A stretch of 64,000 nt of DNA. Origin: Escherichia coli (GTDB lineage: Bacteria > Pseudomonadota > Gammaproteobacteria > Enterobacterales > Enterobacteriaceae). Made by a program: the position numbers. This document shows positions 12,001 to 15,000 of the stretch, one piece after another (the stretch's first letter is position 1; every line of letters starts with the position of its first letter). The stretch is taken from assembly GCF_003018115.1 (NCBI RefSeq), contig NZ_CP027457.1. One strand, given 5' to 3'.

Positions 12001-15000
12001 TTACCGTTATTCTGCTGGTGGTCTGTGGTGCGCTTAGTCTGGGGCTGAATCATTACCGCGATAACGCCATCATCTACAAAGCGCAGCGCGATAAAAAAGC
12101 CAGAGAGCTGGAGCTGGCAAACGCAACCATTACTGATATGCAGGTGCGCCAGCGCGATGTTGCTGCGCTCGATGCAAAATACTCGAGGGAATTAGCCGAT
12201 GCGAGAGCTGAAAATGAAACTCTGCGTGCTGATGTTGCCGCTGGTCGTAAGCGCCTGCGGATCAACGCCACCTGCTCCGGTACCGTGCGTGAAGCCACCG
12301 GCACCTCCGGCGTGGGCAATGATGCCGCCGTCGAACTCTCTCCGGTTGCTGGACGAAACGTTCTCGGTATCAGAGACGGAATCATCAGCGACCAGGCTGC
12401 ATTGAGAATGCTTCAGGAATATATCCGCACTCAGTGTATTAACTAGTATTTTTGTTATCCGGAGAATGCATGAAGAAATTACTGGTAACTGTAAAGCCTT
12501 TTCAGGGAACAATTCCGTTCCGTATTTTGCAGCGTGGTCGTGTTCTTGTTGAAGGTTCGTTCAGTGGTAAATGTACGCAATTACACTCCCGGACCTTTCA
12601 GGTGAATGCCACGAATGAAGAGCTAACCGTTGAGTGTACGATGAATGCCGCTAAATGCCGTATGGTATCGGCTGCATTACAGCCTGTGTGTTGAGCGACC
12701 TTATTATCCATGCGCGGTATTGTCGCCGTATTCCCGTATTAACAGAGACCGCAGCCCGACAGGGAGACTCCTCTGCGCGAGTGTGCGGGGATAATCAAAA
12801 ACGATACACACCGGGGTTTATCGCGTTAACGGAGCGCGGCGTTGTCCCCTCATGGTCGCTGGTCCGGTGCGATGGTGGAAGAAACCGGACGATGTGTTAC
12901 CTCGCATGACCTGTTATGTCATGTGTCTGATTTGTGATTTAAGTCGGATAATTGTCGTTGCCATTAAGCAGAGGATTGATGGCCGACAGGGTGGCATTGT
13001 TAGAATAAGACTTATTCTTATCTGTGCCGGGAATGAAAATGAAAAGAAATCTTCCGTTAATTATTTTGTTGTCTTCTCTGGTTATGGGCTGTACGCAACA
13101 TAAAACAGATATGCCCCGACAGTTGGTTAAGGCATTACCACAATATCCGGCCTATGCAGCGGCAAATTATATAAAGGGACGGGTTGATGTGAAGTTTGAT
13201 ATTGGTGCTGATGGTACTGTCACCCGAATTGAGTTTATCCGTTCAGAGCCGCACCATCTGTTTGATGAGCAGGTTGTAAAGGCGATGGCAAAATGGCGAT
13301 TTGAGAAGGACAGGCCGCGTAAAGGCGTGAAGAAAACGTTTATCTTTAGTCCTTCTGCACCCTGATTATTTCATCAGAAATTAATTATCACTCTGTTGTT
13401 ATTCTGTACATCCCGGCTGGGTAAGTCTTGTTCCGCCGGGTATGAAGATGAAATATTGTTGGAGGACAGTGGGTACCTGCTCCTGTAACCGAACGTTCAT
13501 TTCTCGTTATTTGTCATGCTGGCCGGGCGCAGGTGCGTTGCATCTGTTGCCAGCCTTCTCCTGCAGGCTTCAATAACCCACGCTGAAAAGTTACCGGACC
13601 CTTTATGCTCAAGGGCGATGTTGATCTGTTCAATCATGTGATTGGGGAAACGGATATTGCGGGTTGTGGTTCTGCGGGTCCGGTTTTTCGATGACATATT
13701 TATTTCCTTTACTGATTGCCATATGACGGGGATTTTACATGGCTGAGCTTCGTACACTCCAGAGCAGAATCAAAACACTGAATACCCGACGGGTGAATAT
13801 TCTGAAGGGTGAACAGCGTCGTGTCAGTGGCAGTGCACGTGTTTCCCTCAAGCGTCATATCTGGCTCAGGGATGCCGGGCAGTGCTGTCTCTGTGGTCGT
13901 GTGGTTGACCTCTGTGACAGTGAACTCGATCACCGAATTGCACTTCAGTTCGGTGGTGGTAATGAGGAGACGAATCTCTGGACGCTCTGTACCGAATGCC
14001 ATCGACAAAAGTCTGCTCGTGAAGCGGCGGGTGGTATGCCGGACCCGACGCTGCCGGAGGTGTCCGGAGGTAGTGGCAGAGCGGACGACATCATCGGACT
14101 GTAACCCGACCGGGGGGGGTATCATTCGGCGTAAAAAACGATCGCTCCGGACACCGCGCCCCCTCTCACGCAGAGAAAAAATTCCCGTTTCAGGGCAGTT
14201 AACATGTTAACTGGCTGTCCGGGCATTTTTGCGGTTTTTATCTTTATTATTCAGTTTGTTGCGCGGAAAAAATGTTAACTGGCTTTTTCAGCAAATGTTA
14301 ACCAGGCAGCAGTTAACATTTGCGGCATGAGACGCCGGGAAAAATGGGCTGAACCATACCCGGCTGAGTGCGTTCTGGACCCGGGAGGAGGCTGTGCTGA
14401 CAACGCAAAAACGAAAATTTGCGCTGGCGCTCATGTCCGGGAAAAACAAAACAGCGTCAGCCATTGCCGCCGGTTATTCGGCGAAGACAGCCAGGGTTAA
14501 AGGCTCGCAGCTGGCAAAAGATCCGGAGGTGCTTGCGTTTATAGCCCGTAAACAGTGCGAGACGGTGGAGGTGGATGAGGTTCCTGTTTACCGGCAGAAA
14601 AAATCAGAGCAGGAGGATAAACCCCGTCGCCGTGAGGCGGCTGCAATACCACAGCCGGACGAAACAAATCCGGAGATGCCACCGCCCGTGGTGATATCTC
14701 CTGGTATTGAGTATATGGAGGACGGTCTTCCCGATCCGGTGAAAGCGATGGGGCGTCTTCTGGTGGAGAACATTAATACCGACCCCAGGCTGGCGCTGGA
14801 TGCGGCTTATAAGCTGGCGCAGTTCACGCACCACAAAAAAGGGGATGCCGGTAAAAAATCGGCAAAAGGTGACGCGGCGAAAAAAGCGGCTAACCGTTTT
14901 GCGGTGCCACCACCACCCCGACTGGTGGTGAATAATGATAATGAGGGCAACGGATGATACCTGTGTGGAGCACGGCCTGCCCGGACTGGGCAGAGCGCCT

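Follow-up and report, generated by a model that had tools for sequence, protein, structure and literature searches.

What might a lambdoid prophage gain from a small lipoprotein that is built on TonB's C-terminal domain, and at which membrane would such a protein act? The question is raised by a 64,000-nucleotide stretch of Escherichia coli DNA (contig NZ_CP027457.1; hereafter the window), a lambdoid E. coli prophage in which a coding sequence (CDS) at 13039-13365 on the plus strand, stop codon included, specifies a product of 108 amino acids (aa) that RefSeq lists as WP_000828070.1, 'TonB family protein'. The answer that we favor, with a probability of roughly 45%, is that this TonB-like lipoprotein is an outer-membrane decoy. 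By analogy with fragments of TonB itself, it would compete with TonB for the Ton boxes, damping the TonB-dependent entry of phages and colicins.

The greater part of the product is a TonB_C domain (13114-13353, plus strand; residues 26-105), which aligns without gaps to residues 153-232 of E. coli TonB and matches the Pfam model TonB_C PF03544 with E=6.7e-15. Against TIGR01352 it scores 56.5 bits, well above the curated cut-off of 27.1, which places it in the TonB_C family. A sequence search of the PDB returned the TonB chains 1u07, 2gsk and 2grx at E of ~1e-16, and 31 of 83 residues (37%) are identical to E. coli TonB 153-235 in an ungapped alignment. An earlier note on this DNA had proposed just such a match to the TonB C-terminal domain and had named profile methods and structure prediction as the way to check it; the match holds in each of these searches, and the structural comparison leads to the same domain. 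An AlphaFold2 model computed from 20 family sequences (predicted local distance difference test, pLDDT, 87) shows the TonB_C fold, with its elements in the order alpha1-beta1-beta2-alpha2-beta3 (helix 38-42, strands 47-55 and 61-70, helix 76-83, strand 94-103). When the model was compared with the PDB by Foldseek, the significant matches were all TonB C-terminal domains, at a root-mean-square deviation (rmsd) of 1.0-1.4 A and a target template modeling (TM) score of 0.88-0.92, among them the TonB chains of two transporter complexes, that with BtuB (2gsk_B; an rmsd of 1.0 A and a target TM of 0.92) and that with FhuA (2grx_C; an rmsd of 1.1 A). The YP motif, which defines the fold, and the aromatic core (Y36, F53, F75, W86, F88 and F103) are kept.

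The full-length TonB equivalog models NF008081-NF008084 give only 60-73 bits against cut-offs of 265-448, and the match covers only the last ~80 profile positions. With neither the N-terminal inner-membrane anchor that couples TonB to ExbB-ExbD nor the proline-rich spacer, the protein is not a TonB energy transducer proper. Its mature part comprises 90 residues and ends in FIFSPSAP; because the chain terminates 5 residues past beta3, it is without beta4. In free TonB, beta4 mediates dimerization or caps beta3, and in transporter complexes it is displaced or disordered and the Ton box pairs in parallel with beta3 (PMC7014051).

In place of the missing N-terminus stands a predicted lipoprotein signal. 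The open reading frame (ORF) listing of the window has the plus-strand frame opening with GTG at 13024 and ending at 13365 (113 aa), and several features support the ATG at 13039 as the true start, giving the 108-aa product: the RefSeq/PGAP call and the alignment with allele B, the second form of the gene (71% amino acid identity to allele A, the form in the window), agree on it, and allele B offers a single ATG with AGGA in front of it. A Shine-Dalgarno-like GGGA lies at 13029-13032, upstream of the ATG. A pattern match places the signal peptide and the putatively lipidated Cys18 at 13039-13092 on the plus strand, residues 1-17 being MKRNLPLIILLSSLVMG. The N-terminus, MKRN-LPLIILLSSLVMG-C18, fits the PROSITE PS51257-type lipoprotein pattern, with K2 and R3 preceding the hydrophobic core and the lipobox LVMG/C18 lying within IILLSSLVMGC, much as had been anticipated in the earlier description of an approximately 110-aa product with the lipobox LVMG/C. 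Our alignment A1 contains 15 short relatives that are not TonB, and 13 of them fit the same pattern with signal peptides of differing sequence. Lipoproteins without Asp at position +2 are sorted to the outer membrane under the 'Asp+2' rule of the Lol pathway. The residue at +2 after Cys18 is Thr, which predicts outer-membrane sorting, and Asp never occurs at +2 among the lipobox-bearing short relatives. Some 8 residues, from Cys18 to Pro26, form the tether between the lipid anchor and the domain.

The gene is a self-contained moron of lambdoid prophages. Along the prophage come the genes for holin, lysozyme and Rz, the last with Rz1 embedded in it, then a small hypothetical ORF, the TonB-like gene, ynfO on the opposite strand and an HNH endonuclease gene, followed by the small and large terminase, capsid and portal genes, so that the gene does sit between the lysis and packaging modules, where it had been placed on first reading. 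BLAST comparison with phage vB_EcoS-569R3 and alignment of the junctions delimit an inserted cassette of ~600 bp at 12892-13495 that carries the gene: homology to this phage spans 12414-12891 and restarts at 13487 with adjacent subject coordinates. At the two ends of the cassette stand the copies of a 9-bp direct repeat, AACCGGACG at 12883-12891 and AACCGAACG at 13487-13495; the match between them is imperfect, and the empty site in vB_EcoS-569R3 holds one copy only. The G+C fraction inside the cassette is 0.42-0.45 as compared with ~0.52 upstream. Relative to both vB_EcoS-569R3 and PPyecE_EH1910, the gene thus displays the presence or absence on a conserved backbone by which morons are recognized, and the deviant G+C of the cassette is likewise that of a moron.

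The family is widespread. Among the 5426 complete E. coli genomes it was detected in 1615 (~30%, both alleles counted), with allele A in ~413 and the commoner allele B in ~1201. Allele A is present in Stx1a-converting phages. Allele B is carried by the classical phage 21, whose record names it 'TonB C-terminal domain protein' and where it follows Rz/Rz1 and bor ahead of cos, and by many E. coli prophages in which it lies beside iss/bor, ahead of nohD/terminase. Between allele A and the phage 21 allele, the ratio of nonsynonymous to synonymous substitution (dN/dS) is 0.12 at a dS of ~1.5, which is saturated; on this comparison, the gene is under purifying selection. Remoter relatives, of 110-133 aa and 34-49% identity, have a lipobox in almost all cases, and those of 40-45% identity, in a Klebsiella phage and other contigs, occupy the matching slot between spanin and HNH/terminase genes. 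The Klebsiella phage relative sits between the lysis genes and HNH/terminase, and a further relative, P0035, has an Rz-like gene (DUF2514) on one side and genes for HNH, terminase and portal proteins on the other. A scan of IMG/VR gave, among the matches listed, near-identical allele A loci and no added diversity. One relative (P0040; 6001-6402 of locus L013) is a 133-aa TonB_C-only lipoprotein of 46% identity that is chromosomal and stands beside ahpC/ahpF and a glutathione S-transferase gene; the architecture is therefore not exclusive to phages.

How might such a protein act? As we envisage it, Cys18 would be lipidated and the Lol pathway would deliver the protein to the outer membrane's inner leaflet, where the tether of ~8 residues would keep the domain right under the TonB-dependent transporters. 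The free edge of beta3, uncapped for want of beta4, could then pair with the Ton boxes of FhuA, FepA, Cir and BtuB. Since the protein is unlinked to ExbB-ExbD, no force would be transmitted, and it would therefore compete with host TonB and damp import. A lysogen would become less sensitive to phages that depend on TonB (those like T1 and phi80), to colicins of group B and to catecholate microcins, at the cost of some iron and B12 uptake, and the outcome would be heterotypic exclusion rather than a block of the prophage's own receptor. Transport through FhuA and FecA was reportedly inhibited by periplasmic TonB fragments in work by Howard et al. of 2001 in J Bacteriol. Competitive inhibition of energy transduction by TonB fragments has also been described more recently (bioRxiv 10.1101/2022.09.26.509584). 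Taken one by one, the elements of the model have published precedent: Ton-box binding by the beta-sheet and the residue-160 region of TonB (PMC7014051; PMC9249621), competitive inhibition by excess fragments, and the action of the phage lipoproteins Cor and Llp on FhuA from its periplasmic face. The Leu that allele A carries at the position of TonB Q160 may be no more than suggestive, Q160L being the classical suppressor of Ton-box mutations (PMC11658791).

A number of observations weigh against the decoy. The Ton box is contacted by the region of TonB around residue 160 (PMC9249621), and the TonB residues implicated in transporter contact differ here, Q160 being replaced by Leu in allele A and by Tyr in allele B; R158 has become Lys or Thr, and R166 Tyr. 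At position 160, genuine enterobacterial TonBs have Gln, and the closer lipoprotein relatives mostly have Leu, Tyr or His. When the mature domain was modeled by AlphaFold2 in one chain with a 21-residue glycine-serine linker and the Ton-box-bearing N-terminus of BtuB, in a run that included no positive control, the peptide stayed undocked (pLDDT <50), an outcome that is uninformative and counts for neither side. Several allele B database clusters (P0010, P0012, P0013, P0015, P0018, P0019 and P0021, one of which comprises 130 member sequences) have altered C-termini, the change beginning at about residue 88-95, as would result from frameshifts that delete beta3, and the gene would therefore be dispensable in many prophages. 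A general block of TonB ought to carry a cost, which sits ill with how very common the gene is. PADLOC models of defense systems gave no match to the protein. The gene is also unlinked to the receptor-binding tail gene, unlike cor and llp. Lambda and 434 have J proteins that bind porins (LamB, OmpC), and it is these that the C-terminus of the prophage J resembles (56% for lambda and 53% for 434); no cor gene is annotated in the prophage. A blocker of the prophage's own receptor, in the manner of Cor, is accordingly unsupported.

Expression raises a further difficulty for the decoy. The gene is co-oriented with the late operon, and late expression is therefore expected. A consensus scan for promoters and terminators, which requires a -35 element, yielded no convincing promoter on the plus strand; as no promoter is called, the gene may be transcribed from pR' alone and hence late, at a stage where exclusion is of little use. 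A candidate extended -10 (TGtTAGAAT, 12998-13006, plus strand), read from the sequence, has no good -35 at 17-bp spacing, and in phage 21 a small upstream ORF has its stop codon within the equivalent bases. No convincing intrinsic terminator was found after the gene by the consensus scan. A weak terminator-like hairpin at the left cassette edge (12903-12925, plus strand; an 8-bp stem followed by TCTGATTTGT) is a candidate only, terminator-like sites in the region being no more numerous than in shuffles.

Overlapping the candidate -10 is a perfect palindrome, AGAATAAG-A-CTTATTCT, at 13002-13018, which is unique in the window and ends 20 nt before the start codon. The inverted repeat reported earlier is thus real, though its spacer is a single A rather than AC and its span is 13002-13018 rather than 13002-13019. 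Its suggested role as an operator fared less well. The right arm falls inside a 13-nt indel that is missing from allele B, the commoner allele, and such repeats are frequent: perfect inverted repeats with 8-bp arms and a loop of <=6 occur at ~27 loci in the 64-kb window (~1 per 2.4 kb), so that one would be expected by chance in a given 100-bp upstream stretch in ~5% of cases. We therefore reject the palindrome as a conserved operator. What both alleles do conserve is the block ATTGT(T/C)AGAATAAGAC, which includes the left arm and could serve as the extended -10.

Other functions for the lipoprotein have to be set against the decoy, and the one that fares best is an attack on the motor rather than on the transporters. 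The lipoprotein might heterodimerize with the C-terminal domain of host TonB, or bind the periplasmic domain of ExbD, and so keep TonB at the outer membrane; TonB-dependent import would be lost just as with a decoy, and only the target would differ. Fragments of the TonB C-terminus dimerize in several ways, both in crystals and in solution (PMC7014051), TonB cycles through TonB-TonB and TonB-ExbD contacts (PMC7014051; bioRxiv 10.1101/2022.09.26.509584), and the phage protein conserves the region of the amphipathic helix (TonB 199-216) well, with 7 of 18 residues identical, F202, W213 and E216 among them. We nevertheless consider this unlikely: beta4, the mediator of the TonB crystal dimers, is precisely the element that is missing, and an 8-residue tether would put the domain at the outer membrane, a position that fits Ton boxes better than ExbD.

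The position of the gene might instead suggest an accessory to the envelope or to lysis, a late outer-membrane lipoprotein that binds peptidoglycan or outer-membrane proteins and alters envelope integrity or the timing of lysis. In every context examined, the gene is co-oriented with, and directly downstream of, the lysis cassette; the product matches two PHROGs only, phrog_34172 and phrog_1267, the latter (E=1.9e-42) labeled lysis and 'Rz-like spanin'. The prophage, however, has a complete spanin pair of its own, Rz at 11973-12446 (phrog_13, 1.9e-70) and, embedded in it, Rz1 at 12199-12405 (phrog_3198, 3.2e-31). Outer-membrane spanins (o-spanins) are short and proline-rich, and the TonB-like protein is a globular domain of 90 residues that is not nested in an Rz-like gene. 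The anatomy, with Rz/Rz1 separate and the globular TonB_C domain ~600 bp downstream, leads us to reject a spanin role, and the phrog_1267 label was probably transferred by position. Because the gene is an indel, sister phages lyse without it. An interaction with peptidoglycan has been proposed for the TonB dimer (PMC7014051), and some effect on the envelope at lysis is conceivable on that ground; overall we hold an accessory role of this kind to be distinctly unlikely.

A third possibility is that the lipoprotein, like the products of bor and iss, is a lysogenic-conversion factor for the host-animal niche, one that tunes iron import and Fur-regulated genes (stx1 in Stx1 phages) or surface properties. 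The company the gene keeps is what brings this to mind. Allele B, present in about 1200 genomes, adjoins iss/bor in two sampled genomes and in phage 21; allele A travels with Stx1a-converting phages; and the palindrome upstream of it matches the 19-bp Fur-box consensus at 13 of 19 positions (13004-13022, minus strand). Only 32 of ~128,000 window positions reach a match of at least 13/19, which puts this one marginally above background; the Klebsiella phage reaches 12/19, and allele B, with at most 10/19, has no Fur-like match. A match of this quality in allele A only is too weak to be claimed as a Fur box, and we mention it as an idea. The case for a conversion factor is entirely circumstantial and would still require interference with TonB-dependent transporters, so that we judge it improbable.

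Finally, a functionless tonB fragment captured in a recombination hot spot, as the labels 'partial tonB-like membrane protein' or 'TonB fragment' in older records and the existence of frameshifted copies might suggest, is very improbable and already largely refuted, given that the low dN/dS argues against it, that the N-terminus of TonB has given way to a lipoprotein signal peptide, which is kept as a feature while its sequence varies, that an identity of only 37% to E. coli TonB excludes a recent fragment, and that remote relatives retain both architecture and slot.

The decoy reading gains a wider frame from a second gene of the same prophage. At 4382-4810 on the plus strand, 8.6 kb upstream of the TonB-like gene, lies a gene for a 142-aa lipoprotein (lipobox LTTGC; phrog_5772) whose C-terminal 88 residues are TolA domain III (PDB 1s62/3qdp, E about 4e-26 to 5e-26). 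It scores above the TIGR02794 cut-off; PGAP labels the product as full TolA, and phrog_5772 is a family of unknown function. The TolA-like lipoprotein that the earlier note had located about 9 kb upstream is thereby confirmed. The same note had gone on to suggest that the two lipoproteins form a two-part system, and here an obligate pair finds no support, because the genes are independently distributed. The TolA-like gene was found in 122 complete E. coli genomes as against 1615 for the TonB-like gene, and in none of the 15 phage records that bear the latter; the one phage record that has it (mEp460_ev081, 67% identity) is without the TonB-like gene. In the sampled E. coli prophages with the TolA-like gene, allele A of the TonB-like gene does lie 8-10 kb downstream. 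The slot of the TolA-like gene is just after Q and tRNA-Ile/tRNA-Arg; in Stx phages, the stx genes lie in the slot after Q and the tRNAs. On their distribution, the two genes are parallel morons of one design and no obligate pair. One may speculate more broadly that lambdoid prophages have made decoys, anchored in the outer membrane, of the domains by which TonB and TolA, the two envelope force transducers of the host, bind their partners, the TonB copy being carried by ~30% of complete E. coli genomes and the TolA copy being added in this lineage. The decoys would occupy Ton boxes and Tol-dependent entry sites and so give lysogens a broad, hitherto undescribed and receptor-independent exclusion of phages, colicins and microcins whose entry depends on TonB or Tol, with iron control through Fur as a possibility for allele A; we put this forward as a tentative and, on balance, rather unlikely generalization.

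The surroundings of the TolA-like gene are themselves unusual. Five copies of the small RNA (sRNA) STnc100 (Rfam RF02076; 119-172 bits against a gathering threshold of 47) lie on the plus strand at 4917-5129, 6889-7084, 7148-7357, 7419-7617 and 7679-7868, and form a ~260-nt repeat that flanks the TolA-like and AraC-like genes. Between the sRNA repeats, at 5506-6231 on the plus strand, is a gene for a 241-aa helix-turn-helix protein (phrog_1450, with a weaker match to transcriptional-regulator PHROGs), which may be a prophage-encoded regulator of host genes.

Several features nearer to the cassette, and at the edge of the prophage, may be recorded here. The queried stretch is 100% identical to the chromosome of isolate 07-4299 (NZ_CP027462), and the prophage is inserted in ompW, adjoining yciEFG and trpA; a truncated ompW remnant stands beside yciE (L005 2043-2168; about 38800-38950 in the window). 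Upstream of the lysis genes, at 8096-10060 on the plus strand, is a gene for a 654-aa carbohydrate esterase of the SASA family. The 80-aa ORF directly after Rz (12452-12694, plus strand) matches only positions 98-172 of the 291-position phrog_2571 and may be the remnant of a longer gene. Upstream of the cassette, a non-coding block of ~180 bp (12711-12890) seems, when the contexts of the two alleles are compared, to be much more strongly conserved than the CDS (73.5% at the nucleotide level), and it occurs also in phages that lack the TonB-like gene. A structured RNA in this block was considered and rejected, there being no Rfam match and fold z-scores of +0.9 and +0.3 on the two strands.

The homology to TonB was on record before this analysis, in the RefSeq/PGAP name, the phage 21 annotation, phrog_1267 and the entry 'partial tonB-like membrane protein … CP-933N' in the record of phage ev017. 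To speak of a 'second decoy', as was done initially, therefore overstates the novelty of a gene already annotated as TonB family or TonB C-terminal domain protein. If the decoy reading is correct, a gene that close to one in three complete E. coli genomes carry, with Shiga toxin-producing and avian pathogenic-type strains and also phage 21 among its bearers, would alter sensitivity to TonB-dependent phages, to colicins and to microcins (probiotic microcins included), and would alter the uptake of siderophore-antibiotic conjugates and iron acquisition generally. Mimicry of a host energy transducer would then join the known modes by which prophages protect their hosts, and the TonB field would gain a natural, evolved competitive inhibitor. 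Should the reading be wrong, the protein remains a conserved, selected and abundant prophage lipoprotein, and full-text searches of the literature turned up no work on the function of a phage lipoprotein with a TonB domain.

How, then, does the TonB-like lipoprotein compare with systems already known? With the C-terminal domain of E. coli TonB (1U07, 2GSK, 2GRX) it shares fold and topology, the YP motif, the aromatic core and beta3, whereas the transmembrane anchor, proline-rich spacer, ExbB-ExbD link, beta4 and Q160 of TonB are replaced by a predicted lipid anchor to the outer membrane and by Leu or Tyr at the position of Q160. The periplasmic TonB fragments of laboratory constructs likewise put a TonB C-terminal domain into the periplasm uncoupled from the motor, but they are artificial, soluble and host-derived, while the phage protein is natural, phage-borne, 37% identical and predicted to be lipid-anchored. 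The TolA-domain-III lipoprotein (phrog_5772) follows the same plan in the same prophage lineage, a lipobox and then the partner-binding C-terminal domain of a host envelope force transducer; it differs in its domain, in its slot after Q and the tRNAs, and in a much rarer and independent distribution. The Bor/Iss moron of lambda and its relatives is also an outer-membrane lipoprotein encoded in the hot spot between the lysis genes and cos/terminase, where it adjoins allele B, yet its sequence and fold are unrelated, and bor is transcribed against the late operon with which the TonB-like gene is co-oriented. The nearest functional counterparts may be Cor (phi80, N15, HK022, T1) and Llp (T5), phage outer-membrane lipoproteins that act on FhuA from its periplasmic face and exclude phages (bioRxiv 10.64898/2026.03.26.714494). 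These are, as is predicted here, small phage-encoded lipoproteins of the outer membrane. Their fold is unrelated to TonB_C, the significant PDB matches from Foldseek being all TonB with no Llp listed; their genes lie beside the tail-tip gene rather than between the lysis and terminase genes; and each has one receptor as its target, whereas the predicted target of the TonB-like protein is the generic Ton box. The protein described here would thus be a phage outer-membrane lipoprotein that acts on TonB-dependent transporters and is built from the host transducer's own domain.

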